Shown here in pieces: positions 300-60,386 of a stretch of 64,000 nucleotides of DNA. A model generated the notes under the pieces. The model saw only the letters and a program-made list of their open reading frames with translations. It was not told the origin of the DNA and ran no database searches. A program made the position numbers and the translations under genes. Source of the stretch: a virus (lineage: Duplodnaviria; Caudoviricetes). Every line of letters begins with the position of its first letter. Within the stretch, counting starts at the first letter, position 1. The stretch is from the IMG/VR virus record IMGVR_UViG_3300038608_000011, positions 1-64,000 of that record, one strand, 5' to 3'.

Positions 300-1625
300 C
301 TATTTCTTAGAAATCTTGCAATATTTATCAGAGCCTAGGACTTCTTTCCAAGCCTGCTGCATCGCTGCATACAACAAATCTACGATAGACTCACGACAGC
401 AGAAAGAATCGTGGTAGCACAGAGCCACTTCACCGCTTTGTATCATAAGATCAATCACACGTAAAGCAATTTCACTATCTAGATTTTGAAGCCAAATCCC
501 TCTGTCATTGTAAAACTCCTTTTCAATCACATAGTTATGATCTGCAAGCGCTTGGATGATCTTACCTGTATCCGGCTTGATAATACCAAAGAATTCACGA
601 TCCTTTTCTTCTCTGAGATTATCCTTGAACAGTTCATTACCAAGTGTCCGTTTGGTTTGTGCAAAATCTACACAATTGATAGACAAAAGTAAAGCGCGTT
701 TGTAAAGATTCCGCACAGGATCATATTTTGTTAGTGTGTGTTTCATTTTATGCTTGGCAATTGCAATTGTGTCCACTTGCAAAAACGAACTGTCTGCATT
801 ATACGGATCAAAATCTTCTGTAATAAGCTCTGAAATCCCCTTATTTTCGTCTAAATACAGTGAGTAAAGCATATATGGGTGATTTGCTTTATAATCGAGT
901 TCTATAATCTTCTCACCGTTTATAGTAATATGTTCTAGGCGGTATTCTTCTGGTAATAGTTGGATACCACCACCATGCACAAACAGCCGACCACCATGAA
1001 ACAAATCCCCACTAAAAGAACGCTTGTACTCAACCAAGGGCAGCGGTTCACCCATAAACTCAATCTGCACTGAACTCAAGCTTTGATTGTAGTCATTCAT
1101 TTTACTAACCATTTTTAAAAACTCCTCGGTGTTCTCTGTAAATATTTGTTCTTTTGTCTTGCGGTCTTTTACCACAACATACTCCAACAGGCAACCTTTT
1201 GCTACGTGTAAGGACACTTGTTCATTGTCAAACAAGGCTAGCAGCTTAGGTTCAAACCTGATAATTGTGGGGAATGACAACCACTCGGCTCTTGTGTCCT
1301 TATTACCAAGGAAGATTGTAATATAACCATCTGTCTCTAGGTTGTCAAGCACCGATTTCACTTGTCTAGCACCAATTCCACAGATGTTACCAGACCAGTA
1401 GTCAGCCTTCAGCCTAACACTGAAACCTCTATAGCCATTACGCAAAGCTTTACTGGTGTTGGTGAAGAACCATTGCAGAGCATTGTATTTCTTTTCTCCA
1501 TAGACTTTACACATAGCTTCCACTATGGTGTCATAAGCTTTATTCTCCTCTCGAAATGGTCTACCCTTCATTGTAGACAACAACATCTTATACCTCTCTA
1601 CACCCTCTATTTCTCTTACTTTCAT
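300..1625 (-). CDS. Divergent, compact family-A polymerase-like protein (PolA / single-subunit RNAP superfamily palm and fingers)
   Basis: Motifs in the expected order: GGRLF, motif A ELDYKANHP, motif B-like RNLYKRALL, LQNLDSEIA, motif C YHDSF. No exonuclease domain seen. Confidence 0.6.
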   Translation of the reverse strand: MKVREIEGVERYKMLLSTMKGRPFREENKAYDTIVEAMCKVYGEKKYNALQWFFTNTSKALRNGYRGFSVRLKADYWSGNICGIGARQVKSVLDNLETDGYITIFLGNKDTRAEWLSFPTIIRFEPKLLALFDNEQVSLHVAKGCLLEYVVVKDRKTKEQIFTENTEEFLKMVSKMNDYNQSLSSVQIEFMGEPLPLVEYKRSFSGDLFHGGRLFVHGGGIQLLPEEYRLEHITINGEKIIELDYKANHPYMLYSLYLDENKGISELITEDFDPYNADSSFLQVDTIAIAKHKMKHTLTKYDPVRNLYKRALLLSINCVDFAQTKRTLGNELFKDNLREEKDREFFGIIKPDTGKIIQALADHNYVIEKEFYNDRGIWLQNLDSEIALRVIDLMIQSGEVALCYHDSFCCRESIVDLLYAAMQQAWKEVLGSDKYCKISKK

Positions 1626-1835
1626 TCACTTCCCTCTTACCATATCCTCTATTCTCCTATATGGGAAACATTTCTCCACGAAGGCATTCAACCCAACAAT
1701 CTTAGCACACATCTCAGAGAACACAAGCCTCTGTATGAAAATAAATTTATAGAAATTCCCTTGACTCTCCCTTGCATTGCTGTAGAATCAAACCCTCGAA
1801 TGATTGAGTATCAACCACAAACGTAGGAGATTGAG

Positions 1836-2102
1836 ATGAAATTCCCAAAAGAACGTGATGTAGGGCGTTATGGTGATATGAGTCAGACAGCGCATCTTCG
1901 TGTTGGCCTTGATGGTGACAGCGACGTTTATGTGAGCATCTATGATGACCAAGGTGGAGCCAGTATTGAATTCTGTACGCAATATGCTGGAGGTGGTAAG
2001 TCTCCACGTACACGAGAGGCTTTGATAGCCCTGATGACTGCTATAGAGGAAGATAATGCAGAAACCCCAAGCTTTGATTGGTGGAAGCGTAGAGCTATTT
2101 AG
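1836..2102 (+). CDS. Hypothetical phage protein (88 aa)
   Basis: ATG with upstream AGGAG; start of the + strand block. Confidence 0.7.
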   Translation: MKFPKERDVGRYGDMSQTAHLRVGLDGDSDVYVSIYDDQGGASIEFCTQYAGGGKSPRTREALIALMTAIEEDNAETPSFDWWKRRAI

Positions 2103-3283: not shown

Positions 3284-3491
3284 CCCTGTTGCAAAACACT
3301 TGCACAAATCCTGTAAATCTTCTATAGTGCTCTGCAAGAAGCGTTCTCTGTTAAGTGATGCCATAGCATTAGAAACACAAGAAAGCCTCTCTGAGGGGCT
3401 TGTGGAGGGGTATCCCTGGCGGGATGAGAGCTGTTATGATGAGCCTGACTGCGACACAGAGATAAATTTAAACAAAGGAGAAACAATATGA
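3270..3491 (+). CDS. Hypothetical protein (73 aa)
   Basis: ATGA overlap with the next gene. Confidence 0.65.
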   Translation: MKIRSPVAKHLHKSCKSSIVLCKKRSLLSDAIALETQESLSEGLVEGYPWRDESCYDEPDCDTEINLNKGETI

Positions 3492-5500
3492 GTGGATTTG
3501 CACCATTTGGCAGTGCCGTACACGTAGCCTTCAATTCTATTCTTGAGAAAGATAACAAGACGCGAGAAAATGTCTTTGTTGTTGATGTTACTGGAGATGA
3601 GTTGTGGGAACATTATCTTGCATCGTTTCCACAGGGAACCAACCCAATCTTCCGTGAACGTACAGAGCATGATTGCTCTTGCTGCAAGAATTTCGTAAGG
3701 AACATTGGTGATGTTGTCTACGTTAAAGGAGATGAATTCTTTAGTGTTTGGGATGTCGCGCTATCGGATGAAACATATTCTGTTGTTGCTAAAGCAATGT
3801 CTGAATTCGTTAAGAGTAAGCCGATTAAAGCTCATTTCTTGGTGACTGAGCCATCTTATGGTGCTGAATCCACCAATACTAAAGGTGAGGTGTGGAAGCA
3901 TTTTCATGCAAAGATTCCCTCAATCTTCATTAGTAAGAACAATGACAGCAATTATGTCGGCCAACGTAAAGACGATGTAAATATTCTTCGTCGCTCGATT
4001 CTTGAAATTACCGATGAATCTGTTGATATTATCTCTGAACTAATTGACCAGAATTCTCTGTATCGTGGGGAAGAGCATAAAAACACTGTGAGCCTTCTGA
4101 AAACGTTGAAGCGGGAATACAACAAACTGACAACTGAACGTCAGAAAGAGTTCTTCCTTTGGACCAAGGCGAAGCCAAACACACGAGTACGCAACACTGT
4201 TATTGGTACACTACTAACTGATATTTCTGAAGGTGTTGAGCTTGAACGTGCTGTAGCAAGCTTTGAAGCTAAAGTAGCACCTACAAACTACAAGCGGCCT
4301 AAAGCGCTCGTCACTCAGCGGATGATTGATGAAGCTAAAAAGCAAGTAGAGGCTCTAGGTATTGAAGATTCTCTTTCTCGTCGATACGCTGTACGAGAAG
4401 ATATTTCTGTCAATGATGTGCTGTTTGTTGATGGGAGTGTGAAACCTAAGCTTCTTGGTGGTGCATTTGATTCGATAAAGCCGACGAAGAAGTCTGTACC
4501 TGAATTTACAAACGTAGAAGATATTAGCATCAAGGACTTCCTTACTAACGTTCTACCAAAAGCAACTGAAATTGAAGCATTTATTAAGAACCAGCACCTG
4601 AGCAACTTTGTAAGCTTGGTGGCCCCTATGCACGGTGAATCACCAGCATTGTTTAAATGGGACAACGGTTTCTCTTGGTCATATGATGGTGAAGTGACAG
4701 ACTCCATCAAAGAGCGTGTCAAGAAAGCGGGCGGTAAGGTTGATGGTGATGTTCGTGTGTCTCTGTCCTGGCATAACAGTGATGATCTTGATTTAGGTGT
4801 AATTTGCAAAAGAACTGACCGGCGCATGTACTTTAGTAATCGCTACAGTAAGCTGTTTGGTTGTATTCTTGATGTGGATATGAATGGCGGTAGTGGGATG
4901 AATGCTGTTGATCCTGTTGAAAACATTGTTTGGAGTCGTTCTGCTGAAATGCCAGTTGGGGAATACAGTATTTATGTAAACAACTACAATAAACGTGGGA
5001 CTGCTAATGTCGGGTTTGAAGTAGAGGTAGAGATTGAAGGGCAAGTGTTCAGCTTTACTCACCCTAAAGACCTAAGTAGCCGAGCAACTATTGAGGTTGG
5101 AGTGATTACCAAGGACAAACAAGGCAACATCACAGTAAGTAATATGGTAAAGGGTTCGTCTTCTAGTGAGAAATGGAATATCAAAACTGAAGATTGGGCA
5201 CCTGTAGACCTCATCACCCGCTCCCCTAACTTCTGGGAAAGTAAGAAGGTAGGTAACGAGCACGTATTCTTTATGCTGAAAGGTTGCGTCAATGAAGAAG
5301 GTACACGCGGCTTCTACAATGAATTCCTCCGTGATGACCTCACTGCACATCGTAAGACGTTTGAACTGCTTGCATCAAGTATGAAGGTAGGCTACAATGA
5401 AAATCAGTTGAGCGGGATTGGCTTCTCAACCACCAAACGAGAAGAAATTCTTGTACGTGTGAAAGGTTCTATCAATCGTGTATTGAATGTTAAGTTTTAA
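3488..5500 (+). CDS. Large phage protein of unknown function with C-terminal YfaP/DUF2135-like domain
   Basis: 670 aa. N-terminal HDCSCC motif. C-terminal VRVSLSWHNSDDLDL...LDVDMNGG...PVENIVW...GEYSIYV resembles the YfaP-type beta domain. Confidence 0.6.
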   Translation: MSGFAPFGSAVHVAFNSILEKDNKTRENVFVVDVTGDELWEHYLASFPQGTNPIFRERTEHDCSCCKNFVRNIGDVVYVKGDEFFSVWDVALSDETYSVVAKAMSEFVKSKPIKAHFLVTEPSYGAESTNTKGEVWKHFHAKIPSIFISKNNDSNYVGQRKDDVNILRRSILEITDESVDIISELIDQNSLYRGEEHKNTVSLLKTLKREYNKLTTERQKEFFLWTKAKPNTRVRNTVIGTLLTDISEGVELERAVASFEAKVAPTNYKRPKALVTQRMIDEAKKQVEALGIEDSLSRRYAVREDISVNDVLFVDGSVKPKLLGGAFDSIKPTKKSVPEFTNVEDISIKDFLTNVLPKATEIEAFIKNQHLSNFVSLVAPMHGESPALFKWDNGFSWSYDGEVTDSIKERVKKAGGKVDGDVRVSLSWHNSDDLDLGVICKRTDRRMYFSNRYSKLFGCILDVDMNGGSGMNAVDPVENIVWSRSAEMPVGEYSIYVNNYNKRGTANVGFEVEVEIEGQVFSFTHPKDLSSRATIEVGVITKDKQGNITVSNMVKGSSSSEKWNIKTEDWAPVDLITRSPNFWESKKVGNEHVFFMLKGCVNEEGTRGFYNEFLRDDLTAHRKTFELLASSMKVGYNENQLSGIGFSTTKREEILVRVKGSINRVLNVKF

Positions 5501-5536: not shown

Positions 5537-5938
5537 ATGACTACTGAAACTACAAACATCTTTGAAATTGCATCCCGTCAGAAACTACGCTTTGAAACAG
5601 CGGTTGGAATGATCAGCACAGAAGACCTCTGGTCACTACCACTAACTTCCAACAGCAAGGTTTCTCTTGATTCTTTAGCTGTTGCTTTGAACAAGGAACT
5701 GAAGGGTTCCGAAGAAAGCTTTGTAACAAGCACCAAGAAAGATGAAGTGCTGAAGCTCAAGTTTGATCTTGTAAAGCATGTGATTGATGTACGCATGGAA
5801 GAGAACAAGAAGAAAACTGAAGAACTTCAACGTAAAGCTAAGCTTGAGAACATTGATAGTCTCATTGTACAGAAACAGAATGAGAAACTGGCTAACCTTT
5901 CTCTTGAAGAGCTTGAGGCATTGAAAGCCAGCGTCTAA
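5537..5938 (+). CDS. Hypothetical coiled-coil protein (133 aa), probable partner of the 670-aa ORF
   Basis: GAGGA RBS; followed by a terminator. Confidence 0.8.
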   Translation: MTTETTNIFEIASRQKLRFETAVGMISTEDLWSLPLTSNSKVSLDSLAVALNKELKGSEESFVTSTKKDEVLKLKFDLVKHVIDVRMEENKKKTEELQRKAKLENIDSLIVQKQNEKLANLSLEELEALKASV

Positions 5939-6767: not shown

Positions 6768-8516
6768 TTGAGTAAACAAGAGCGACCAGATGGAGAACTT
6801 CTATATCATGCAGCTTGTATTGGGGAAGATTGTTCCTCGTCTGATGGTATGGCAGTTTATATAAAAGAAATTGATGGAAAGCAAATCAATGATGCTTTCT
6901 GTTTTGTCTGTAGTAATTATTTCAATCATTCTCAGCTTGAAGAAGTGGGGGTTAAGATTAAAGAGGGGAAAAGTAAATTGACAGAAGCTGTAGATTTTTC
7001 AACTATTGAAACTATTCCTTTCCGAGGCTGGAAAGATCGGGGTATCGGGCAACCCGTAAGTGTTAAATATGGAGTACACACTGAAGTAGAAAATAGCTTT
7101 GATGTAATAGCCCGCTACTACCCATCAACCTCAGATGGTAAGATTGTTGGTTATAAAAAACGTGTGACACCAAAAGATTTTATTGGTATCGGTAGTACAA
7201 AAGCAACTAATGAACTATTTGGCCAATCTGTATTTGAAGCTGGACAGAAATATCTTGTTGTTACTACAGGGGAAGAGGATGCGCTAGCTTTTGCTCAAGC
7301 TCTTTATTCAAAGAAAGACAACACCGAATATTGGACACCTGTTGTTAGCGTAACTTGTGGTGATGGTAGTATTATCAAACAGTTCAAGGCTAATTTTGAA
7401 TACATCAATTCCTTTGATAAAGTAGTTCTGGCATTTGACAACGATGATTCAGCACAGAAATATGTAGAGGAGGCTGCACGTCTACTGAGTCCCGGTAAAG
7501 GATTTATTGTCAAATTCCCACAAGGAATTAAAGATGCATCTGACATGGTTAAAGCTGGGCGATCCGCTGAACTAAAGCAATTATTTTGGAAAGCTACGCC
7601 TTTTAGTCGGGTCGATGTTCTGCATTTGAGTCAGATGTGGGATGATTTTGAAAGCGAGGATAACAATGTAAAAATTCCATTCCCTGCATCATGGTCGCAC
7701 TTGAATGAAATGATGAATGGTGGTATGGAAAAAGGTGAAATTACTATAATCGGAGCATTGACTTCCATTGGTAAGTCCTCTATTATCAACAATGTTGTAT
7801 ATTCGTTGATTGAGAATACACAATTTAAAGTTGGTGCAATGTATCTAGAGGGTACTAAACGAGAGGTGGTACGTGATTTGTTGTCACTTGATGCTGGGAT
7901 GAATCTGCGGACTGTAAATCGTAACAATGTAGACATTGAGGCTCTAAAGTATCGATTCTTTGAAAATCTTGCAAAGAAGGATCAATTCGTTTATGTTGAC
8001 CATCAGGGTAGTATTTCAACATCAGAGATTTTTGATAAACTGAATTATCTAGCAAAAGCTGAAAATTGCGATGTCATCATTATTGATCCAGTCCAAGCTG
8101 GTGTGAACAGTAGTGATAATGGTGCAATTATTGAGTTTATGGATACTCTGTTGAAGTTTGCAAAGGAAACAGATACTTGCGTGGTTGCAGTGAGTCACAT
8201 GCGCAAGCCTTCTGAAGAAAACCCACACGCTGTAACTGAATATTCTCTCATGGGTTCTTCTAGTCTGAATCAAATTGCATTCAATACTATTCTATTGAGT
8301 CGAGACAAAATGAACGAGTGCCCCATCAAGAAATCAGCAACCAAGTTACAATTGGTTAAATGTCGTCGGACTGGTAACACTGGTGAAGCCGGTTGGTTGC
8401 GATATGACCACAGCACAACCCATTTGTTTGCTACATCTGATCCGTATGCAGAAGAGTTCCTTGAGCCACCTTCTGCTGAGTCACTTGAAGTACCAGCACA
8501 CATGGTTGACTTTTGA
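6768..8516 (+). CDS. T7 gp4-like DNA primase-helicase
   Basis: N-terminal Cys Zn-binding region, TOPRIM (GEEDA, AFDND, KDASD), Walker A GALTSIGKS, IIIDP, VSHMRK, KCRRTG; TTG start behind AGGAGG. Confidence 0.93.
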   Translation: MSKQERPDGELLYHAACIGEDCSSSDGMAVYIKEIDGKQINDAFCFVCSNYFNHSQLEEVGVKIKEGKSKLTEAVDFSTIETIPFRGWKDRGIGQPVSVKYGVHTEVENSFDVIARYYPSTSDGKIVGYKKRVTPKDFIGIGSTKATNELFGQSVFEAGQKYLVVTTGEEDALAFAQALYSKKDNTEYWTPVVSVTCGDGSIIKQFKANFEYINSFDKVVLAFDNDDSAQKYVEEAARLLSPGKGFIVKFPQGIKDASDMVKAGRSAELKQLFWKATPFSRVDVLHLSQMWDDFESEDNNVKIPFPASWSHLNEMMNGGMEKGEITIIGALTSIGKSSIINNVVYSLIENTQFKVGAMYLEGTKREVVRDLLSLDAGMNLRTVNRNNVDIEALKYRFFENLAKKDQFVYVDHQGSISTSEIFDKLNYLAKAENCDVIIIDPVQAGVNSSDNGAIIEFMDTLLKFAKETDTCVVAVSHMRKPSEENPHAVTEYSLMGSSSLNQIAFNTILLSRDKMNECPIKKSATKLQLVKCRRTGNTGEAGWLRYDHSTTHLFATSDPYAEEFLEPPSAESLEVPAHMVDF

Positions 8517-8561
8517 AATAAGGAGGGGTAAAATCCTCCGTTCAATTTGGGAGGGGTTGTT

Positions 8562-10721
8562 TTGGAGAAGAAATGGTTCAAAACTGATTTCATTTGGGAC
8601 TTGGAAACTTTCCCAAACTGTTTTACCGCATGTTTTGTTTATGCTAACGGACAAGGGATACGTGTATTTGAAATCAGTGATAGGAAGAATGAAACTGAAG
8701 GGTTATTAGAGTTCCTTCGGAAAGTGAAGGTTGGGGACTATCGTCTCGTAGGGTTTAACTCGGTTGGGTTTGATTACCCCATCCTTCATCACATTCTGAC
8801 TAAAGCAAAGAAGGCATTTAAGAAAGGTGAACCAGTAAAACTGACAGCAAAAGAGCTTTACAAAGTCGCCATGGATTTGATTAATGCTCAGGATGATGAA
8901 AAGTTTGGTAAAATGATCAAACAAGATGATGTTATTATTCGTCAGGTTGATTTGTATAAGATTCACCATTTCGATAACCGAGCAAAGGCTACTTCGTTGA
9001 AGGTTTTAGAATTCAATATGAGGAGTAAAAACATTGAGGATTTACCATTTCCGGTAGGGACTATCCTTGATGACAAACAGAAAGACACGTTGATCAAGTA
9101 CAACAAACACGACGTCATGGAGACTCTGAAGTTCTATTGGTACTCTTATGATGCTCTCAAGCTTCGGGATGAACTTAGTATCCAGTTTGGTTTTGACTGT
9201 ACGAACTACAACGACACTAAAATAGGCTCAGAGCTTTTTATTAATTCCCTTGAGAAAGCACAAAAGGGATTGTGCTACATTCAAAGTGATCGCGGTAGGA
9301 AAATGCGTCAAACTAAACGGGATAGGATTGTCATTAAAGATTGTTTGTTTGATTACCTGAAGTTTAAGCGACCTGAATTCCAAGCAGTTCATAACTGGTT
9401 CAAGTCACAAGTGATTACAGAAACCAAAGGTGCATTCAGCGACTACCTAGAACACCAATTAGGTGATGTTGCAAAGTATGCGGAGATGGTAGTCAAGAAG
9501 AAAAAGCTTTCTGATCCTATTGACAAGAAAAACAAACGATATGTACCATCGGAAGATTTGATTGAAGTATTAAAGAAAGAACAACCTTTAGGTTGGATTG
9601 AAGAGAAAGAACTGAAGAGTCCTAAAGGAGCGATTAGTTATTATTGGTGTTATAACGTTGTTGAGACAATTAACGTTATAATTGATGGGTTGCGTTTCGA
9701 TTTTGGCACGGGAGGTATTCACGCATCTTTGAGTTCCGTGACTGTATCATCAGATGATGATTACCAGATTATTGATGCTGACGTGGCATCAATGTACCCA
9801 AATATCAGTATCAGTAATAACGCTCACCCTGAGCATTTGGGATTAACCTTCTGTAAGGTGTACAAACATCTATATGAGGAACGTAAGAAATACCCGAAAG
9901 GAAGTGGTGCAAACGCGGCGATTAAGCTAGCTTTGAACGGTGTTTACGGGAAATCCAACTCAGAGTATTCACCGTTCTTTGATCCGGCTTACACCATGAA
10001 AATTACCATCAATGGACAGCTTTCGTTGTGCATGTTGGCTGAAATGTACCTAGAGATTGGGTGTAAGCTAATTCAGTGCAACACCGATGGTGTGACAGCT
10101 CTTGTACCTAAAGATAAGGTCGAGGACTATTACAGAGTATCTAAGGAGTGGGAGCAGATTGTAAAACTTGACCTTGAATACGCTGAATACAGTAAAATGT
10201 ATCTTTCAGACGTCAATAATTACCTTGCCGTTTATATGGATGGGAAAGTTAAGAGTAAAGGTCGTTATGAAGTAGCTCATTTTGAGAAGTTGGGGTGGTC
10301 AAAGAACCACTCTGCGATGATTATTCCAATTGCAGCTTTGAAATATTTAACTGAAGGTGAGGATTTTAGGCAGACCATCTTTAATCATGAAGATCCTTTT
10401 GATATGATGCTCCGCGTTAAGGTGCCTCGTAACAGTCGATTGGTATTAACAGATTCAGAAGGCAACGACACACCACAACAAAATATCTGCCGTTATTATC
10501 CTTGTGAGGATGGTGGGGATATGATTAAAATTATGCCTCCCTTGGAAGGTAAAGAAGAAGCAGGTGAGCGAAGAATGAGTATTGAAAGTGATTGGAAGGT
10601 TGCAACATGTAACGATATGGCTGATTTTAAATGGAAAAATGTAAATTATTCATATTACATCAATGAAGCCAGAAAACTTATTGAGGGTGTAGGTGCAGAG
10701 GTTCCAGAATGGGAAGGTTAG
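8562..10721 (+). CDS. DNA polymerase, family B-like, with 3'-5' exonuclease
   Basis: ExoI WDLETF, ExoII FNSVGFD, ExoIII YNKHDV; polymerase motifs DADVASMYPN, KLALNGVYGK, NTDG; TTG start at 8562 behind GGAGGG. Confidence 0.92.
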   Translation: MEKKWFKTDFIWDLETFPNCFTACFVYANGQGIRVFEISDRKNETEGLLEFLRKVKVGDYRLVGFNSVGFDYPILHHILTKAKKAFKKGEPVKLTAKELYKVAMDLINAQDDEKFGKMIKQDDVIIRQVDLYKIHHFDNRAKATSLKVLEFNMRSKNIEDLPFPVGTILDDKQKDTLIKYNKHDVMETLKFYWYSYDALKLRDELSIQFGFDCTNYNDTKIGSELFINSLEKAQKGLCYIQSDRGRKMRQTKRDRIVIKDCLFDYLKFKRPEFQAVHNWFKSQVITETKGAFSDYLEHQLGDVAKYAEMVVKKKKLSDPIDKKNKRYVPSEDLIEVLKKEQPLGWIEEKELKSPKGAISYYWCYNVVETINVIIDGLRFDFGTGGIHASLSSVTVSSDDDYQIIDADVASMYPNISISNNAHPEHLGLTFCKVYKHLYEERKKYPKGSGANAAIKLALNGVYGKSNSEYSPFFDPAYTMKITINGQLSLCMLAEMYLEIGCKLIQCNTDGVTALVPKDKVEDYYRVSKEWEQIVKLDLEYAEYSKMYLSDVNNYLAVYMDGKVKSKGRYEVAHFEKLGWSKNHSAMIIPIAALKYLTEGEDFRQTIFNHEDPFDMMLRVKVPRNSRLVLTDSEGNDTPQQNICRYYPCEDGGDMIKIMPPLEGKEEAGERRMSIESDWKVATCNDMADFKWKNVNYSYYINEARKLIEGVGAEVPEWEG

Positions 10722-11272
10722 GATCAGAAAAAGATTCAGATTTGACGCTAGAGGAACTTAAGAGGAGCCTAGATTATAATCCTGTTTCAGGATTCTTTTC
10801 ATGGAAAATTCCAAAACGAGGGTTGCATGTAGGTGATAAGGCTGGTAGTATTAATGACCAAGGTTATATTATATTAACTATTAATCTGCGCAGATATAGA
10901 GGTCACAGACTCGCTTGGTTTTATATGACAGGTAGTTGGCCTGTGGGAGAAATTGATCACGAGGACGGTGTACGTTCAAATAATAGTTGGTCAAACCTGC
11001 GAGATGTACCGCGTTTAGAAAATAAACGTAACCAAGGAAGAATTACTACAAATACTTCTGGATATAATGGTGTAATGTGGTATAAAGCAGGTCAGAAATG
11101 GCATGCTCAAATCAGCATCAGCGGTGAGAAGATTCACCTTGGATATTTTGAAGACATCGAGGATGCAATTAAGGCCCGAAAAGATGCTGAGGATCTATAT
11201 GGGTTCCACGAAACACACGGAGAGAAAGATTCATGGAATCGTAAAAATAACGCTAGACAATCCACAACGTAG
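10709..11272 (+). CDS. HNH endonuclease with AP2 DNA-binding domain (putative free-standing homing endonuclease)
   Basis: HRLAW...IDHEDGVRSNN...NLR and NTSGYNGV.W...W.AQI...HLGYF; overlaps the end of the pol gene. Confidence 0.88.
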   Translation: MGRLGSEKDSDLTLEELKRSLDYNPVSGFFSWKIPKRGLHVGDKAGSINDQGYIILTINLRRYRGHRLAWFYMTGSWPVGEIDHEDGVRSNNSWSNLRDVPRLENKRNQGRITTNTSGYNGVMWYKAGQKWHAQISISGEKIHLGYFEDIEDAIKARKDAEDLYGFHETHGEKDSWNRKNNARQSTT

Positions 11273-12350: not shown

Positions 12351-12619
12351 GGGAGAAACAATATACGCAACAAACGAGCAAAACAGCTACGAAAGGAAGC
12401 TCTAGCGATAGGACTTCAAGTAGAAAATAATTATGAGAAGCTACAATCTATACGGAACGGGGAACTGAAAACTACTATTGTTCTTGCAGAATGTGTACGA
12501 GCGACTTATCTTCAAATGAAAAAGAATTCTGGTATTAATGCTTGAATAACACAGTCTCAAAACTATGTGACTAAATAATGTAAATATCAGGCCACAGGAG
12601 GCGTATAGATGTGAGATTA

Positions 12620-13222
12620 ATGACAAAAACTAAGCTTGTCTGCGGTGTTGGTATAAATGATGCTGATTACAATGTGTGTAGGAGGGAGGTTGTAGGGGGG
12701 AAATACAAGATAGTGTGGGCGTGTCCTTTCTACTTAACTTGGAAAGAAATGCTACGAAGGTGTTATGATCCTCTGTTACACAAAAGACAGCCCACATACT
12801 CTGAATGTTCAGTTTGCAACGAATGGATTTACTTTTCTAAATTCAAAGCTTGGATGGAGAATCAGGATTGGCAGGGTAAGGAATTAGATAAAGATATTCT
12901 AGTTTCAGATAATAAATTTTATAGCCCTGAAACTTGTGTCTTCGTGCTTTCAAAAGTTAATCTGTTTCTTTCAGAGAAGTTTAAATCTATTGATCACCTT
13001 CCTACTGGTGTGTGGTTAGAGAAAAATAGTAAGTACAGGGCGACAGGGAATGGTGAAACTCTGGGGAGGTATAATACTCCAGAACAGGCGCATCAAGTTT
13101 GGCTTGACTTTAAAATTCAACAGGCGTATATATTGGCTGCCGAACAGACTGATGAACGTGTAGCAAAAGCTTTAATTAACCGATATGAAAACTATCAAAT
13201 AAACTTAAATAGAGAAAATTAA
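12620..13222 (+). CDS. Putative homing endonuclease (HNH-like LDKDIL family)
   Basis: KLVCGVGINDADY...W.EML.RCY...Y..C.V...W..FS.FKAWME.Q...LDKDIL; paralogous to 17465, 62245 and 53079. Confidence 0.75.
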   Translation: MTKTKLVCGVGINDADYNVCRREVVGGKYKIVWACPFYLTWKEMLRRCYDPLLHKRQPTYSECSVCNEWIYFSKFKAWMENQDWQGKELDKDILVSDNKFYSPETCVFVLSKVNLFLSEKFKSIDHLPTGVWLEKNSKYRATGNGETLGRYNTPEQAHQVWLDFKIQQAYILAAEQTDERVAKALINRYENYQINLNREN

Positions 13223-14781: not shown

Positions 14782-15783
14782 TTGGATCTATTAGACGTGA
14801 TAGATCCAAACTTTGGATTAGTAGAGAATCAAAATACTGGTAGGAAGTTTGGTAAAGACGGGCAAATTGAAATTATTGGCTGGAGTGGTAAATACAGGTC
14901 AGCTAAAAAGTATGTGCTTATTTGTAAGGAATGTGCAAAGGATCAGGAGATGTTTGGTGAAGGATACTTCAGTGCAACACTGACCAACTTGACATCTGGG
15001 CGTATACCATGTGGTTGCGCAAAAAGTCATAAAAGAACAATAGCACAGTATGCTATTGAAGCAACTAGAACTTGTGAATTCTTAGGGTTAAAATTCATCG
15101 ATTGGGAAGGGGAGTTCAAGGATACACGTGTTAAGTGTAAGATTGAGTGCCCCGTTCATGGTATTTATGCGACAACATCACTTAACAGCCTTATAAACCA
15201 GCAATCAGGTTGTCGGAAGTGCGCCGATGTGTATATTGCCAAGAGATTTACAAAACCGGACAATCAGATGGCAGATAAATTTATGAGCACTGGAATGTTC
15301 CAGAGTGGAACTATATTTACAAGGTCAGACTTACAAAACAAGAGTGGACATAAAACTTTCTGGAATATAGAATGTCCCCAATGTGGGTTTAGTGGAACAT
15401 CACATCAGTCAAATCTTTCAGTAGGGAAAGTACCTTGCGAGTGCTCATATACAACAAAAATGACTGAAGCCTATATAAATATAATTTCAGACTCGGGTAA
15501 TGACATTGCGATTAAGTTTGGAATATCTTCGTTGAGCCATAGAAGATTGAAAACACAGGGGAGGTATTCTGTCTATGACATCAGGAAGTTTGGAGTTTGG
15601 ACCTTCCCAAACTTTATTCAGTGTAGAGAAGCTGAGAATGAAGTTAAACAATGTGTTGTTAGTGGGATTTTAGGTAAAGAGGAAATGCCAGATGGCTTTA
15701 CCGAAACTACCTACACATACAATGTAGATAAGGTTATTCAAATTTATGAAAGTAACGGAGGAGTTAGAATGAATGACAAGTGA
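14782..15783 (+). CDS. Putative endonuclease: Cys-rich Zn-finger-like modules plus C-terminal GIY-YIG/T5orf172-like domain
   Basis: CKEC, CPVHG, CRKC, CPQC, PCEC; C-terminal AYINII...IKFGIS...RRLKTQ...EAENEVK. Confidence 0.55.
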   Translation: MDLLDVIDPNFGLVENQNTGRKFGKDGQIEIIGWSGKYRSAKKYVLICKECAKDQEMFGEGYFSATLTNLTSGRIPCGCAKSHKRTIAQYAIEATRTCEFLGLKFIDWEGEFKDTRVKCKIECPVHGIYATTSLNSLINQQSGCRKCADVYIAKRFTKPDNQMADKFMSTGMFQSGTIFTRSDLQNKSGHKTFWNIECPQCGFSGTSHQSNLSVGKVPCECSYTTKMTEAYINIISDSGNDIAIKFGISSLSHRRLKTQGRYSVYDIRKFGVWTFPNFIQCREAENEVKQCVVSGILGKEEMPDGFTETTYTYNVDKVIQIYESNGGVRMNDK

Positions 15784-20844: not shown

Positions 20845-21017
20845 ATCTACCATCTGAAAGGTACTTTGAGCTAGTGAAAACAGAAGAAGATTATGCTATG
20901 TTTATATCCAGCGGAATGAGTTTTGAGGTTGAATCATTTTGCCCATTCTCTTGGCAAGAACACTTGAGTATGGTAGAGTATAAACAGAATTTAGAATTGA
21001 ATAAGGAGGAAGAATGA
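20841..21017 (+). CDS. Small hypothetical protein (58 aa)
   Basis: ATGA overlaps at both ends. Confidence 0.6.
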   Translation: MNLPSERYFELVKTEEDYAMFISSGMSFEVESFCPFSWQEHLSMVEYKQNLELNKEEE

Positions 21018-22072
21018 TACAGATTAAAGTTGAATACCTGCGACATAGCGGGGATGACCTTGCTGTAGTAGATGCTGCGAGAACTTCTTTTGATAAGCAG
21101 AGTGAGTGGGACTACTCTTGTGATGAGATGTGCTTCACTTGTGTTTGTGGTGGACGAAATAAGAAACTGAAATCTTCGGATGAAAAACTTATCAAGTACC
21201 TCGCAAACCACAAGCATTATTCACCATTTAATCATAGCTTCATTAGTGTTCGTGTTACAGCTCCGGTATTTGTAGCACGACAACTTGTCAAGCACAAGTT
21301 TATGCCATTTAACGAGGTGTCACGTCGTTATGTTACTGATACGCCAGAATTCTACAAGCCTGACCGCTGGCGCAAGGCAGCCCCAAATGTAAAACAAGGA
21401 TCTTCTGCAACAGAGTTTGTAGATATTATTAACAGTAAATGGAAGCGTGATGAAGGTACACCAAGTGAACGACGCAACCCTTGCACTATCAAGTTTGCAC
21501 GTCTGGGGTGGAGAGTAAAGGCAGAAGGTCTTCCGTTTGATCTAAACATTGAAGATGTTGAGTGGAATGAAGTTTGCCCTTTGATGAATATCCCACTAAA
21601 CTATGATGTTTCACGAGGTGGTATTTTTGATGATACCCCTACCTTTGACAAAATTTACCCTGACAAGGGGTATGTAAAGGGGAACGTTCGAGTTATTAGT
21701 GATTTGGCTAACCGAATGAAAAGCTCAGCCACGCCAGAACAACTAGAAACATTTGCACGGGCTACATTGTTGGAGTGGAAAGGTGAAGTGGGTTGTGGTC
21801 AAAGTCCTGAGAAGTTGGCTCAAGCAAGCCTTAAAGAATATGAACGGCTTTTGTCTTTAGGCGTGTGTGCCGAACAAGCCAGACAAGTTCTTCCACAATC
21901 GATGATGACGACATGGATTTGGAGCGGTACATTGGGGGCCTTCTGTGATATGCTTGTTCTTCGTCTTGATGAACATACTCAATATGAAACACGAGTAGTT
22001 GCACAACAAGTGGCAGAGATTGTTAAAGAGTTGTTTCCTGTAAGTTATGTGGCTTTAGTAGAGGATAAATAA
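21014..22072 (+). CDS. thyX: Flavin-dependent thymidylate synthase with in-frame endonuclease-domain insertion
   Basis: HYSPF, ARQLVKHK...NEVSRRYV, EQARQVLP, Q.ETR; about 120 extra residues between KQGSS and the EQAR helix. Confidence 0.9.
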   Translation: MIQIKVEYLRHSGDDLAVVDAARTSFDKQSEWDYSCDEMCFTCVCGGRNKKLKSSDEKLIKYLANHKHYSPFNHSFISVRVTAPVFVARQLVKHKFMPFNEVSRRYVTDTPEFYKPDRWRKAAPNVKQGSSATEFVDIINSKWKRDEGTPSERRNPCTIKFARLGWRVKAEGLPFDLNIEDVEWNEVCPLMNIPLNYDVSRGGIFDDTPTFDKIYPDKGYVKGNVRVISDLANRMKSSATPEQLETFARATLLEWKGEVGCGQSPEKLAQASLKEYERLLSLGVCAEQARQVLPQSMMTTWIWSGTLGAFCDMLVLRLDEHTQYETRVVAQQVAEIVKELFPVSYVALVEDK

Positions 22073-23664: not shown

Positions 23665-25353
23665 GTGACAAACAGTTATCGTGTTTTGAGTGATGAACGT
23701 AAGAAGCTACAAGAAGAGGGGTTGATGCCTGCTCACTGGTCTACGGGATCGTGGCAGCTATTTAAGAATAAATATTTATACCAAGCCTCTAATCCAAGAG
23801 AACAATATCAACGTATCGCAGCTACATTGGCAGTACATACACCAGACCCATCTCATTGGAAGGAGAAGTTCTTTGATATTATGTGGAAAGGGTGGCTAAG
23901 TCCAAGTACACCGATTCTTGCTAATACAGGGACGAATCGTGGTCTACCAGTTAGTTGTGCTGGTAGTTATGTTCCAGACAGTATTGATGGTATTTATAAA
24001 GCAAAGCATGAAACTGCAATGCTTACTAAGATGGGGTTTGGTACAGCAGGTTATTTAGGGGATGTTCGGCCACGAGGTACACCAATCACTGTAGGTGGTA
24101 AGTCTACAGGCGTTCTGCAAGTGATTGAGGGCTTCCAAAGTGATATGGAGTATGTAGCCCAGGGGACAGCTCGACGTGGCTCCTGGGCAGGTTATCTGCC
24201 TATTGATCACGGAGACTTTGATGAAGTGTGTACCTATCTGGAACAACACCCAGATGGTAACAATATAGGCTGGAACATCTCAGATGAGTTTATTGAACGT
24301 CTAAAGTCTGGAGATGCCGATGCAATCAAACGTTATGGTAAAGCTCTAAAGACTAAGATGGTTACGGGGAAGGGATACTTCTTCTTCCCTCAAAAGGTAG
24401 AACGTAAACGTCCACAGTGGTATGTTGATCAGAACCTTGATGTTAAGTCGCCTCAGTTGTGTAATGAGGTTATGCTTCATTCAAGTAAAATCTTTACTTA
24501 CACTTGTGTACTTGCTTCAATGAATGATGAATTGTTCGATGAGTGGTGCGGTACAGATGCTGTGTTTACAGCCATTGTGTTTCTAGATGCTGTTTGTCAG
24601 GAATTCATTGAACGGGCTAAGAACATCCCTGGCCTTGAGAAAGCTGTAGCGTTTACAAAGAATAGTCGTGCTTTGGGGTTAGGTCAGTGTGGTCTTCATT
24701 CATACATGCAAAAGAATATGATTGCATTTGAAAGCTTTGAAGCTCATATGATCAACAACAAGATTGCTAAATATATTCAAGATGAAGCGATTAAAGCATC
24801 TGAATGGCTTGCAAGTGTTTGGGGTGAACCGAAGTGGATGAAAGGCTATGGACGTGCTAACACTCACCTAATTGCAATCGCACCAACTAAATCAACCGCA
24901 CTTATCATGGGTGGTGTTAGTGAAGGTATTAACCCAGACACAGCTATGGTTTATAATCAGAAGAGTGCAGGCGGCGAGGTTGATCGAGTTAACCCTTACC
25001 TTCTAAAACTGATGAAAGAGAAAGGTGTATTCACTAAAGCCAATGTAGAAGATATTCGTGACAAGATGGGCAGCGTGCAACACGTTGAGTGGCTCACCGA
25101 TGATGAGAAGCTTGTATTCCGTACGGCATTTGAAATCAATCAACATACAATCATTCGCATGGCTGCTGCTCGCGGCAAGTTTATGGATCAGTGGCAATCA
25201 TTGAACTTGTTCTTTGCTGCTGGTGAAGATGAGGCCTATATTAACGAGGTGCATAAGGAAGCCTTCTTGAATCCTGACATTCTTGGCTTGTACTACGTTT
25301 ACAGCATGGCAGGTGTGCAAGCCAGCAAGGACGAGTGCCTAGCTTGTCAATAA
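23665..25353 (+). CDS. nrdA: Ribonucleotide reductase class I alpha subunit (short, no ATP cone)
   Basis: PSTPILAN, SC, PQLCNE, IAPT.ST, LYY, C-terminal CLAC. Confidence 0.92.
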   Translation: MTNSYRVLSDERKKLQEEGLMPAHWSTGSWQLFKNKYLYQASNPREQYQRIAATLAVHTPDPSHWKEKFFDIMWKGWLSPSTPILANTGTNRGLPVSCAGSYVPDSIDGIYKAKHETAMLTKMGFGTAGYLGDVRPRGTPITVGGKSTGVLQVIEGFQSDMEYVAQGTARRGSWAGYLPIDHGDFDEVCTYLEQHPDGNNIGWNISDEFIERLKSGDADAIKRYGKALKTKMVTGKGYFFFPQKVERKRPQWYVDQNLDVKSPQLCNEVMLHSSKIFTYTCVLASMNDELFDEWCGTDAVFTAIVFLDAVCQEFIERAKNIPGLEKAVAFTKNSRALGLGQCGLHSYMQKNMIAFESFEAHMINNKIAKYIQDEAIKASEWLASVWGEPKWMKGYGRANTHLIAIAPTKSTALIMGGVSEGINPDTAMVYNQKSAGGEVDRVNPYLLKLMKEKGVFTKANVEDIRDKMGSVQHVEWLTDDEKLVFRTAFEINQHTIIRMAAARGKFMDQWQSLNLFFAAGEDEAYINEVHKEAFLNPDILGLYYVYSMAGVQASKDECLACQ

Positions 25354-25359
25354 CTTTTA

Positions 25360-25387
25360 AAGCCCCTTAATTGGGGCTATTTTTATT
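25360..25387 (+). terminator. Rho-independent terminator
   Basis: AGCCCC-ttaatt-GGGGCT followed by atttttattt. Confidence 0.7.
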
Positions 25388-25398
25388 TAAGGTTTAAA

Positions 25399-25872
25399 AT
25401 GGAATTAATAAAGAATAGAGAAGGTTGGCTAGTAAATGAAACACACAGACAATGTACAAATTGTTTAGTTATTTATGAAAGAACAAGTCCAACAGTCACT
25501 TTATGTAATATTTGTAATTCAGGTAGGGTTAAGAGTCAATCTCCTGAAATCAGGATGTGGAGACGTGCTAAAGCCAGGGTTGTGAAATCTGGAGTGCCTT
25601 TTGATATTGAAGTATCTGATATTATCATTCCTAAACTCTGCCCTATTCTAGGGATACCTCTCGTGGTCTACAGAGGCAGGCCTGGGGGAGAAAACAATTC
25701 CCCAGCACTTGATAGGATTGACAACACGCTGGGATATGTGAAAGGGAATATTCAAGTGATTAGCCACTTAGCCAACTGCATGAAAAGCTCTGCTTCACCT
25801 GAACAATTGGTGAAATTCGCACAGTGGGTGCTTGAGACCTATGAGACACATGCCTCTGCAAGAAATGTTTAA
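25399..25872 (+). CDS. Free-standing His-Me finger/HNH-like endonuclease (LDRID...GY..GN family)
   Basis: CxxC...CxxC N-terminus, CPILGIPL, PALDRIDNTLGYVKGNIQVISHLANCMK. Confidence 0.75.
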   Translation: MELIKNREGWLVNETHRQCTNCLVIYERTSPTVTLCNICNSGRVKSQSPEIRMWRRAKARVVKSGVPFDIEVSDIIIPKLCPILGIPLVVYRGRPGGENNSPALDRIDNTLGYVKGNIQVISHLANCMKSSASPEQLVKFAQWVLETYETHASARNV

Positions 25873-43040: not shown

Positions 43041-44665
43041 CTAGACCGATAAAAAGACTTCTAGGTCAACGAAGCGCACACTTCCCTGTAGACGTGCTTT
43101 AATCACGAATACACCAGCGGCACGTTGAGCACGAAGAGTTTCTGGAATAGACAATACAGGAGGAGTTTGCACGGTCCACCCTTGATCTACTAGGCCATTA
43201 GCTTGTGCTTGAGATAGCACACTACGAATTTCATTCTCTACAATCAAAAGACCAGCATCGGTCATGGGAATTTTGAGGGTGTTAATGATTCGGAAATAAA
43301 TACCTTCTTGAAGGCGTGCTTTCAACCAATCCTTGCCAATTTGAACCGTTTATGTTCGCGTAAGGGCGTTAACCTTACACCGCTCTCCTGAGCTGCTTAC
43401 ACTTTAATGTAAGACCAGACTATATCACCCTCTACAGCATTATCTGTTTAGAGGCTCCCCATTTCGGGTCACTTGACCCTACGGCATTCCTGCCTAGTCG
43501 TTGAACATTCTCTTTCGAGCTTTGCTGCTGATTTACCAATATTTATTGTTTTTAACATTCACGCTCAAACCACACATTATAGTAAGGTTTCACGTTGTAG
43601 TCAATAAATCTCTAAGGTAGTTCCAGCAATTAGAGGAGTTATTCGAAAGCCATTTCTGACTTAAGCGACCTTCATTTGATCGATAGGTTTTTTATCAAAC
43701 ATATTACCGTCTTGGAAAATATCAACGCCTGCTTTACGACGATAATAGTTCCAGCTCTTATTCTTAAGATTGGTAACTTGAGTAGAAGTGAGCATAGAGC
43801 GAGTAACGCCATTAGCGCGCTTGAAATCCCAGTCGTTAGCACCAGGGGTTACTGCAAGTTGGCTGCCCATCCAAGCAGCTTCTGGGAACTCAGTGGCAGC
43901 GGTTGGGAGATAAACACCAAAAGTCCGTGCTGCTGATTTAGCATTTAGTTCATAGCCAATGTCAGTTGTACCTGTAGTTGGAGCTACAATATCGGCAGAA
44001 CTAATACCATAAATCTTTTCACGGGCTTGGATAGCGTCAGAGAGGGCTTCTTGCTCTGCGTTTACTTGCGTTTCAGCAACCAGACCATACCAAGTATCGT
44101 TCTCTGCTTCTACAGCAGTCAGAGCATCGGGCCAAGTTTCAGTGGCAGCAGCATCAACTTTAACCAAATTACTTGATACTTTAATGCTCCAAGCTGTACC
44201 CGGAGTTGTGACAGCAACGGTAAGAGTACCGATGTTATCAGTGGCTGTGACACCTGTTGGGGAACCAATAGCGGCGTCAAGACCAGCAGTAATTTCAGCA
44301 GCAGTTGCAGTAGCATCTGAGGTAAAGTTATAAGCAATGCCGTTGATGGTTACAGTATAAGTTGAGCTGTTTGCAACTGTTGGGGTGATGGTAACGCTAT
44401 TTACTTGCCGACGACCAATAACAATGCTTGGAGGTTGTGCACCAAGTACACCAGACTGACCAAACAACTTACTTGCCAGTATGTATGCTTTATCAGTTGA
44501 AACAAAGTCTGAGCCTACACCAGCAATACTTGTGTAAGTACGGGTACGTTCAGAAAAGTTTGTAAATGTAGCGAGGACCAAGGGGATTTGGAAGCTTGCT
44601 GTTGCAATAGCAGTAGTCTGGTCAAAAATGACTACGCGGACTACGTCATTTAATTCTGAGGACAT
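43041..44665 (-). CDS. Tail sheath protein (DUF3383-like), two exons: 44665-43679 and 43346-43041; 430 aa spliced
   Basis: Splicing restores ...DKKPID|VQIGKDWLKARLQE...; IVIGRR, WDFKRANGV, KIPMTDAG. Confidence 0.88.
43347..43678 (-). ncRNA. Group I intron (IA-like, ORF-less, 332 nt) in tail sheath gene
   Basis: P AATTGCTGGAA, Q AATCAGCAGC, R GTTCAACGACTA, S GATATAGTCT; 5' exon ends in U, intron ends in G; P1 CGAU|C / GGUCG with U-G pair; P10 UUCA/UGAA. Confidence 0.9.
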
Positions 44666-51144: not shown

Positions 51145-53082
51145 TTAATTTCTAAAGGGATTAGGTGTTGAAAGGTCTACGGATTTGAGGCCGTGGAGGA
51201 AGTTGGGGATGTTTATTTTTTGGGCTAAAGTGATAAATGAATCACTCGTGGCGTCCACTTGCATAAAAATCTTCAACAGTGTTCGTTAATCACTGCCCGT
51301 TCACTTAGGAACTGCTGCATGTCACCATGCAGATGAGACTATATCTTCACTCTTTTCAGAGGCTCACCGCTTCGCCTCACTTGAGGCTACTCTACTCGCT
51401 TCCGTCTTTGACGTGCTTTCGATAGTCGTTACGCTTTCATGCTAATTTAATAGCAGGCTTAGCTCGGTATTGTCTACTAGAGAGGTTCACCGAGTTCAAT
51501 GAGTTTATAGACAACCAAGTTTAAAAATCGTCTTTGTTTTTGCGGCTTCCATCAAAAGACTCCAACTCCGAGAAGTATTCGTCGTTCCAAGGGCCAGTTA
51601 CATATCTAACAAGACCAGCTTCTGTTGCTGCTGCGAAAGGCTGAAATCTTATGACCTTAGATTTATTCGAAGGGCGCATTCTCGCGTAAAATCCTTCAGA
51701 AATAAGCTCTTTAATCATCATTTGACCAGCAGCTTTACCAGCTTGCCCCGGCTCTTGCGGAAGTATAATTTGAGTGCCATCAGGGTCAGAAGCAGCTGTT
51801 TCAATAATCTTCTGTAGAACTTCACCGAACCTTGCCCTAAACCTAACTACATCCTCAATGATGTAAATACCGCCTTTGGTCTTAGAGATAAGAACTCCAG
51901 CAGTCCAGTCAGGATTTGGTAGACTTTCAGATGGTAAAGAACCAGCTATATCCCATGCGCGGCAATAAGAAACAACTTCTTGTTCAAAAGGATTTATAGG
52001 TTCCCCTAGCCAGTCAGCTTTCCAATAACCGCTGGTATCCTCTCTTATATCCCAATTACCCCAAAGATCGCGTTCTTGTTTTACGCGCTTAAGGCCTTGC
52101 AAGTTTGCAAGATAACCGGGGTTGGATTTAATTAGTGGTGGATTGTCGTAGATTGTTGCTGAAATAAATTGCAAGGAAAGGGGGAGTACATGACTACCAT
52201 AAGTATCAAGAAGTTCTTGTCTACTATCAGCCCAAATCATTTCATTATTTTGACGAATAAACCAACGAATTTTACCATCCCTTTCAGGATTAGATCGGCC
52301 GGCATTTTCCTCCCCTTTGGGAATTATCCACCAGTCAATCCACTTACGAATGAAACTATCCGGGGATGGGTTGCAAGTTAGAAAGAGGTTGGGTTTCATC
52401 TTTGCTTTAGAACGCAGACGTGACAGAATAACCAAAACATGGTCTTCTATGAGCTGGGTAGCTTCGTCTATCATACAAGCCGATACCTGTCTTCCCCTCC
52501 ACTTCTCGGCGTCTTCATTTGTTTCACAGTGTCCCATGGCTACAATAGCGCCAGATGAGAATGTGAAAGTCATTGCTTTTTTATTTGGTTTTACTTTTGG
52601 ATCAAATGCTCTATATAGTCCGTATGCCTCATCAAAAAGACCACCAGCAACCATAATGCTAGTTTGTTGCTTACGAACAACATACCCCCTGTAATGAGGG
52701 TCATTAATCCATCGTAGATGTCGGAGCAGGCCGCAGTAAGATTTACCGCCACCCATTGCCTTTAAGTTATGAAGTTCGCTAAACTTCTCCACCCTTTCGG
52801 TGTGGTGTCGGACCAGCTCTTAATTCCTAAGAATTCTCTCTGTTTCAGAATCGCTTGATTCTTACTCTACTCACTTCCATCTTATGATGTGTTTTCGATG
52901 GCCTCTACGCACTGTCTTTAAACATTGGCACGGGATTGGCATAGACGTTGCCCTTAGCTTTCCCCGTTTAAAAGAGTTTTGAATGGAGGCGCAAGTTCAC
53001 CACCATATACAATTATATCTGCATCACTAGATAAGAACCATTCTTGTTTGAGGGATGCGGGTGAAAACGAATACTCGCTCAT
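51145..53082 (-). CDS. terL: Terminase large subunit, three exons: 53082-52999, 52759-51527, 51261-51145; 477 aa spliced
   Basis: Splicing restores Walker A VYGG|AMGGGKS and nuclease motif KDD|QVDA; Walker B MIDEA, LTCNP, AWDIA. Confidence 0.92.
51262..51526 (-). ncRNA. Group I intron terL-I2 (ORF-less, 265 nt)
   Basis: P GAACTCGGTGAA, Q AATACCGAGC, R GTAACGACTA, S GAAGATATAGTCT; P1 GACGAU/GUUGUC; terminal G. Confidence 0.9.
52760..52998 (-). ncRNA. Group I intron terL-I1 (ORF-less, 239 nt)
   Basis: P AAACGGGGAA, Q AATCCCGTGC, variant P7 GAGGCCA/TGGTCC; P1 AUGGUGGU/GCCUCCAU; P10 GCAA/UUGC; terminal G. Confidence 0.85.
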
Positions 53083-58317: not shown

Positions 58318-58394
58318 TGGTGCCGGAAGGTGAGATTTGCACTCACGGCTTATAACTTACAAGGTTATCCACTTAACTACTAGCGTACTCCGGC
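58318..58394 (-). tRNA. tRNA-Thr(UGU), slightly atypical, encoded CCA
   Basis: Acceptor GCCGGAG/CTTCCGGC, D-stem CGCT/AGTG, anticodon arm ATAAC-CTTGTAA-GTTAT, T-arm GTGAG-TGCAAAT-CTCAC. Confidence 0.75.
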
Positions 58395-60125: not shown

Positions 60126-60386
60126 TTAACTTCCCACTCATCTACCCAATAATACGTGTGCAAGGGGTCAAAGCAATTCTTTGTCATGTTACCTTTATAC
60201 AATTCTGCCAAGTACTTGTTTTGGAATATCTCATGAATACAGACATCCCCATAATACTCTTTCATCACAACAAATACTGTTTTCATTTCTTATCCACCTT
60301 ACAGAATGTTGTATCGCCCAACACCGTCTTCCAAGCATTAATCATTGCTTCATACAAATCCTGTTCAGCTGACTCTTTAAGGCGCT

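Follow-up and report, generated by a model that had tools for sequence, protein, structure and literature searches.

A divergent divPolA2-class polymerase with a predicted minimal PolA core and a gene-linked upstream element in a PolB-carrying phage

The left end of the window analysed here, which comprises bases 1-64000 of the 77,677-bp IMG/VR virus record IMGVR_UViG_3300038608_000011 (estimated 89% complete), carries a gene for a 441-amino-acid (aa) protein, P0001, that is a new divergent member of the already published divPolA2 class. Judged from its sequence and its predicted structure, P0001 is very probably an active, template-dependent nucleotidyl transferase of low processivity, expressed early from promoters of the host RNA polymerase (RNAP) beside a PolB replisome. 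A first-pass annotation, made from the DNA sequence alone, had proposed a miniature polymerase of the PolA and T7 RNAP superfamily; the predicted fold and the invariant catalytic residues support that proposal, and the class itself had been published in 2024 as divPolA2.

The open reading frame (ORF) is confirmed as a real gene that is widely conserved among phages, far beyond chance. It is the sole long frame at window positions 300-1625 (minus strand), with 441 codons and the ribosome-binding site (RBS) AGAGGGA, and its product matches the PHROG family phrog_4756 ('unknown function') over its full length at E 1.2e-75. Homologues were found by tblastn in 128 phage records, all below 60% identity and mostly from phages of Vibrio, Aeromonas, Pseudoalteromonas and Shewanella. 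In the cholera phage ICP1 the homologue is placed between GP99 and GP101, and no literature on it was found. When 1.84 billion representatives were scanned exhaustively with HMMER, 2,265 clusters, mostly of 400-550 aa, were recovered at E<=1e-3, a family size to be read as a lower bound (at least 2,265 clusters at 50% identity).

The divPolA2 proteins have been described computationally (Virol J 2024;21:200; PMC11348598; preprint 'Jumping DNA polymerases in bacteriophages') as PolA-like enzymes that lack both thumb and exonuclease and occur in phages of 80-85 kb that also carry PolB. In its passages on divPolA2, that paper counts two to three paralogues per genome, reports no detected similarity for the N-terminal domain, and proposes that the enzymes act as repair DNA polymerases (DNAPs) or as RNAPs. 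Profile A1 of the present family matches the barbavirus protein Barba19A gp041 (24273-25532) at E 8.7e-36, the ICP1 protein at E 2.6e-70, and AUR84708 (MG592441), the representative used in the paper, at E 2e-25 (2e-8 by BLASTP). Full-length matches in BFVD include Barba31A, at E 2.6e-22. The gene and the predicted layout of its product are as follows.

300 to 1625, minus strand: the divPolA2-family gene P0001, 441 aa (stop codon at 300-302).
1206 to 1538, minus strand: predicted N-terminal winged-helix-like domain, residues ~30-140, with a putative recognition helix at 86-98 and wing strands at 102-106 and 120-124.
1026 to 1193, minus strand: residues 145-200, a short linker and the first palm strands in the place of the thumb, from predicted secondary structure; alignments with PolA enzymes start at 145-165.
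303 to 1025, minus strand: compact palm and fingers, residues 201-441, from the model and structural alignments.

An AlphaFold2 model built from 34 homologues (predicted local distance difference test score 90.4, predicted template-modelling score 0.84) shows a right-hand palm and fingers fold with both catalytic Asp residues. A Foldseek search of the PDB gave 101 matches at E<=1e-3, and Pol I-type DNA polymerase chains stood at all ranks among the matches listed, with a best E of 8e-6. VIA-align, a second structural search that is independent of Foldseek, scored apicoplast Pol at 13.3, Aquifex Pol I at 13.1, the yeast mitochondrial RNAP 6ymv at 12.3, Pol nu at 11.5, T7 DNAP and Klenow at 11.3 each, T7 RNAP at 11.2, Pol theta at 9.9, and the N4 virion RNAP and N4 RNAPII at 7.6 and 7.5. 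The first-pass annotation had named PolA, T7 RNAP and N4 RNAPII as the structures to compare, and Pol I-type enzymes came out on top. In the model, P0001 has no 3'-5' exonuclease and no canonical thumb, with a single helix (167-184) in residues 145-200 instead of the PolA thumb hairpin. The N-terminal segment, previously noted as resembling a winged helix-turn-helix, is predicted to form a separate domain and is probably a winged helix.

The same kinship was not recovered by sequence searches. Pfam gave no family at E<=10 for P0001, nor for longer or divergent relatives, and NCBIfam gave no match for the polymerase part. A PDB sequence search with the single protein and with profiles of 34 and 140 sequences returned no PolA or RNAP match. 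Alignment of the 140-sequence profile by hhalign with the single sequences of T7 RNAP, T7 DNAP and N4 gp15 and gp16 was not significant; that with T7 RNAP did align motifs B and C, but at E 0.27. The ESM Atlas returned unnamed clusters plus one that is automatically named 'DNA-directed RNA polymerase family protein', which is a lead and not evidence.

Residue conservation was counted in 140 representatives that are 20-43% identical to P0001. R213, R229, D244, Y275, K309 and D406 are invariant, and G212, Q222, H249, R305, N317, Q380, D383, S384 and H405 are each kept in at least 90%. These residues are concentrated in the following motifs.

981 to 995, minus strand: GGRLF, residues 211-215, a T/DxxGR-type motif followed by Q222, P225 and R229 (compare TGRATHAFPNLAQIPGVR in T7 DNAP and DWRGRVY in T7 RNAP).
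876 to 902, minus strand: motif A, ELDYKANHP, residues 242-250, with D244 invariant and H249, at +5, in 97%.
675 to 713, minus strand: motif B or O-helix, RNLYKRALLLSIN, residues 305-317, with K309 invariant, R305 in 98% and N317 in 91%.
465 to 491, minus strand: LQNLDSEIA, residues 379-387, opening the long helix that precedes motif C, with Q380, D383 and S384 in at least 90%.
402 to 416, minus strand: motif C, YHDSF, residues 404-408, with D406 invariant and H405 in 99%.

Equivalences with the T7 enzymes are drawn from spacing and secondary structure, not from a measured superposition. On that basis GGR213 corresponds to TGR429 of T7 DNAP and RGR425 of T7 RNAP, D244 to D475 and D537, R305-x3-K309 to R518/K522 and R627/K631, and H405-D406 to H653-D654 and H811-D812. 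At the steric-gate position P0001 has H249, against E480 in T7 DNAP and G542 in T7 RNAP. N317 takes the place of the Tyr that is common to both classes (Y530 and Y639), and the Tyr or Phe found here in some members (8 and 3 of the 140) supports this alignment. S407 replaces the Glu of HDE (E655 in T7 DNAP) to give an RNAP-like HDSF; the position is Ser in 85%, with Gly in 10 of the 140, Ala in 6 and Glu in only 3. DPY275 lies 31 residues past the motif A Asp, as does DIH506 of T7 DNAP, and carries the Tyr of DIY571 in T7 RNAP. The segment GGRLF-x6-IQLLP-x3-R is closer to TGR...LQIP..R of the DNAPs. Every string quoted by the first-pass annotation, including RNLYK at 305-309, was thus located in the protein; its remark that motif B lacks the usual Tyr holds at N317, and its likening of YHDSF to IHDSF of T7 RNAP holds as well.

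A short sequence ahead of the gene is conserved with it. This element and the promoter-like sequence upstream of it are placed as follows.

1654 to 1669, minus strand: conserved gene-linked cis element GTTTCCCATATAGGAG, which starts 44 nucleotides (nt) before the ATG and has one copy in the genome.
1699 to 1707, minus strand: sigma-70 extended -10-like sequence TGCTAAGAT upstream of the cis element, read by eye; a stricter promoter scan did not list it.

In eight lineages the element, GTTTCCCATATAG(GAG) of 13-16 nt, stands 28-88 nt ahead of the start codon and always in the orientation of the gene. Exact copies are found in the window (1654-1669, minus strand) and in the related loci L014 (5956-5971), L017 and L018 (both ~5924-5936), and copies with one or two mismatches in L019 (5955-5970), L028 (1469-1484) and L029 (1473-1488). 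L015 has a co-varying form, GTTCTGCATATAGGAGG, in two copies 149 nt apart, and L020 has a degenerate form. The lineages that bear it share 44-79% protein identity, and their flanking intergenic sequence is not conserved. The element is a near-palindrome, CCnATATnGG, downstream of a sigma-70-like promoter and between that promoter and the RBS. Its 14-mer with up to 3 mismatches occurs at chance level in the window; five related genomes (four at least 92% complete) hold at most one copy each within 1 mismatch, and their 2-mismatch hits are at the level of a reversed-pattern control. The element is absent from L022, where the gene is truncated, and from the distant homologues of L030, ICP1 and Barba. 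The leader that carries it showed no conserved RNA structure, and 1500-2400 showed neither iterons nor AT-rich features of an origin. The likeliest readings of GTTTCCCATATAGGAG are an operator or a site of the enzyme's own action, such as the start of a primer or transcript, or an origin.

At the left end of the window no gene but that for P0001 is on the minus strand, and the plus-strand replication block diverges from it. The divergent arrangement described in the first-pass annotation holds for the orientation of the gene, but an 88-aa ORF stands between the two; the polymerase and primase that it ascribed to the phage are both found.

1836 to 2102, plus strand: 88-aa ORF with an AGGAG RBS, the first gene of the divergent plus-strand unit.
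6768 to 8516, plus strand: Toprim and DnaB-type primase-helicase.
8547 to 10721, plus strand: replicative DNA polymerase, PolB-like, 724 aa.

The polymerase matches the PHROG family 'DNA polymerase' at E 7.7e-184 and is 47% identical to the DNA polymerase of Barba19A, and its only PDB sequence match is the Sulfolobus PolB 1s5j, at E 1.8e-4. The T7-like replication block also holds a gp2.5-like single-stranded DNA-binding protein, an exonuclease, HNH endonucleases, a ribonucleotide reductase, a thymidylate synthase and an RNA ligase. A promoter-like TTGACT-16-TAGAAT site lies at 1761-1788, ahead of the 88-aa ORF, which has 85% nt identity with Pseudomonas phage vB_PsaM_M1. No other near-identical DNA match exists in the window's first 12 kb, suggesting a recent exchange.

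In relatives, the gene is the first, or one of the first, in a long series of ORFs of 50-130 aa, mostly divergent from the replication block (L014-L018, L020, L022, L028-L030), and in Barba19A the homologue is the second gene of an operon that continues into the primase and PolB genes. Strong sigma-70-type promoters, TTGACA-17-TAGAAT, lie upstream of the gene in L019 and vB_PsaM_M1, in the same place as in the window, where the promoter has a weaker, TG-extended -10. In a barbavirus transcriptome, in which the homologue was assigned to 'gp034' by gene order only, all candidate genes of its block peak at the first time point. Given these promoters and this timing, the gene is therefore read as early and as transcribed by the host RNAP.

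The favoured reading begins from what P0001 keeps, namely the T/DxxGR Arg213, the motif A Asp244, Arg305 and Lys309 of motif B, and His405-Asp406 of motif C. The intact set, the lack of exonuclease and thumb in the model, and the coexisting PolB replisome favour the earlier idea of a stripped-down nucleotidyltransferase with a specialised job, and the presence of PolB, primase-helicase, single-stranded DNA-binding protein and exonuclease together points to an accessory role. What that job is can be proposed only tentatively, at somewhat less than an even chance, as site-directed synthesis of RNA or primers, either for origin priming as in T7 or for transcription of its own operon. The winged helix would position the enzyme at a specific DNA site, where it would make a short RNA or primer, and the single-copy GTTTCCCATATAGGAG upstream of its own gene would be the target site or an autoregulatory operator. 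T7 RNAP, which primes at the primary origin of T7, is the analogue offered, together with origin-specific initiator primases. The leaning towards RNA or primers comes from motif C, which is HDS(F) like HDSF of T7 RNAP and HDCF of N4 RNAPII and not HDE, from the lack of Glu at the steric-gate position, and from the invariant DPY275, which parallels DIY571 of T7 RNAP and not DIH506 of T7 DNAP. The missing thumb implies short products, and a winged helix with a gene-linked, single-copy site fits the pattern of an initiator with its cis site. The putative recognition helix varies among lineages that have an identical element, so any link between winged helix and element is tentative. A bolder form, which we regard as doubtful, is that divPolA2 enzymes, at ~50 kDa, are the smallest known single-subunit enzymes for DNA-directed synthesis of RNA or primers, with site specificity from a plug-in winged helix instead of a T7-type N-terminal domain; in this clade they would act at one site per genome, GTTTCCCATATAGGAG, to prime PolB replication or to drive their own early operon.

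The same fold could instead belong to a DNA polymerase specialised in repairing DNA, filling gaps or synthesising across lesions. It would extend DNA primers over short stretches with dNTPs, and the winged helix would stand in for the thumb as a generic clamp on duplex DNA. The DNAPs at the head of the structural list and the DNAP-like T/DxxGR segment speak for this possible but unlikely role, whereas the loss of three DNAP hallmarks speaks against it, since in at least 85% of family members the motif A +5 Glu has given way to His, the motif B Tyr to Asn and the HDE Glu to Ser, and the role would leave unexplained both the gene-linked, single-copy upstream element and the two to three paralogues per genome given in the divPolA2 passages of PMC11348598. 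A role as general transcriptase of the phage, in which a T7-like RNAP would switch middle and late transcription to phage-specific promoters, would suit the fold and the early timing, but it is improbable. No k-mer of at least 14 nt occurs three times in the 77.7-kb genome and no promoter-like repeat family was found there, which gives no support to a transcription programme of the T7 style. The upstream element has a single copy here and in the five related genomes, sigma-70-like promoters precede the early genes, and the protein lacks a thumb, a T7-like N-terminal domain and an equivalent of Tyr639. Least probable is that the polymerase fold is catalytically dead and exapted purely for regulation, with the winged helix binding DNA, for instance as an autorepressor acting on the upstream element. 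The winged-helix-like domain and the conserved near-palindrome between promoter and RBS would suit such a regulator, but none of the 140 very divergent members has lost either catalytic Asp, the Lys of motif B or the Arg of T/DxxGR, residues that dead enzymes do not normally keep.

Several observations were made on the gene family and on the rest of the window. The C-terminus of P0001 has a 52% identical counterpart of 31 aa at 60286-60378 (minus strand; E 0.001), which may be the remnant of a second copy. In L022:5352-6195 (IMGVR_UViG_3300011154_000001, an 83.8-kb relative), the gene has been replaced or lost, and all that survives is its last 64 codons (84% identity), now a 69-aa ORF that follows an unrelated ORF of 221 aa. 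A distant bacterial homologue, P0062, was found in a small island of the Palleronia sp. chromosome CP136759.1 (L027:4203-12216) with a phage integrase, a resolvase and an RVT_1 reverse transcriptase, and therefore the family occurs on integrative elements too. A plasmid Rep-like role is unsupported, with no plasmid matches for P0001 and three weak ones for P0062.

The replication block starts with a 670-aa protein (3488-5500, plus strand) that belongs to phrog_1735, a conserved family of phage proteins without assigned function (E 5e-257), and has no Pfam domain. Genes of the homing-endonuclease type are abundant in the block (10709-11272, 12611-13222, 14782-15783 and 21014-22072, all plus strand), with an HNH_3 ORF directly after PolB, a second HNH ORF and a protein with CapR and DUF723 domains. 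The thymidylate synthase ORF has an endonuclease VII/HNH-like insert at residues ~130-255. Two group I introns (Rfam RF00028, 61 bits each) lie at 43396-43688 and 51315-51568 (both minus strand), the second at the 3' end of the large-terminase ORF 51521-52792. That ORF covers only positions 174-588 of the 642-position PHROG profile, and thus the terminase appears split. A tRNA-Thr (TGT) gene lies at 58318-58394 (minus strand).

The family is large and stands structurally between Pol I-type DNA polymerases and T7-type RNAPs, and the cis element is a concrete, testable handle on its function. If RNA or primers are made at a defined site, P0001 would be a half-size programmable polymerase, would bear on the origin of T7-like RNAPs from PolA, and would supply a missing replication-initiation step for phages that have T7-like replisomes but no RNAP of their own. 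If it is instead a repair DNAP, it would show how far the PolA core can shrink, with no thumb, no exonuclease and altered sugar-gate residues. Relative to the divPolA2 passages of the published account, the winged-helix-like assignment, the family size, the residue pattern, the position of the gene, which leads early operons behind sigma-70-like promoters, and the cis element linked to it are new.

Among known systems, divPolA2 as described in those passages is fitted point by point: P0001 shares palm and fingers with motifs A, B and C, the lack of exonuclease and thumb, a separate N-terminal domain and a PolB-carrying phage. It differs in being only ~22-23% identical to the barbavirus and AUR84708 proteins, in motif C (HDS, against FDE in AUR84708), and in its winged-helix-like N-terminal domain; the upstream element and the His and Asn substitutions do not appear in the paper's divPolA2 passages.

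With the Family A DNA polymerases (Klenow, Taq, T7 gp5, apicoplast Pol), P0001 shares the palm and fingers fold and, at matching spacings, the T/DxxGR motif, the motif A Asp, R-x3-K of motif B and His-Asp of motif C. Unlike them it is half the size, lacks exonuclease and thumb, has His for the steric-gate Glu, Asn for the motif B Tyr and HDS for HDE, and gives no match to Pfam PF00476. Its YHDSF resembles IHDSF of T7 RNAP and VHDCF of N4 gp16. However, compared with T7-like single-subunit RNAPs, mitochondrial RNAP among them, it has no equivalent of Tyr639, no promoter-binding N-terminal domain, no specificity loop, no thumb and no match to Pfam PF00940, and the phage genome here has no conserved promoter set. 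N4 RNAPII gp16 (404 aa) requires a second subunit, gp15. ColE2 Rep, P4 alpha and pRN1 ORF904 are origin-specific initiator primases that have winged-helix domains and a cis site beside their own gene. P0001 would follow the same logic, coupling a putative sequence-reading winged helix to a polymerase of nucleotides and having its cis site beside the gene, but their catalytic domains are of the archaeo-eukaryotic primase or DnaG type and not a PolA palm.
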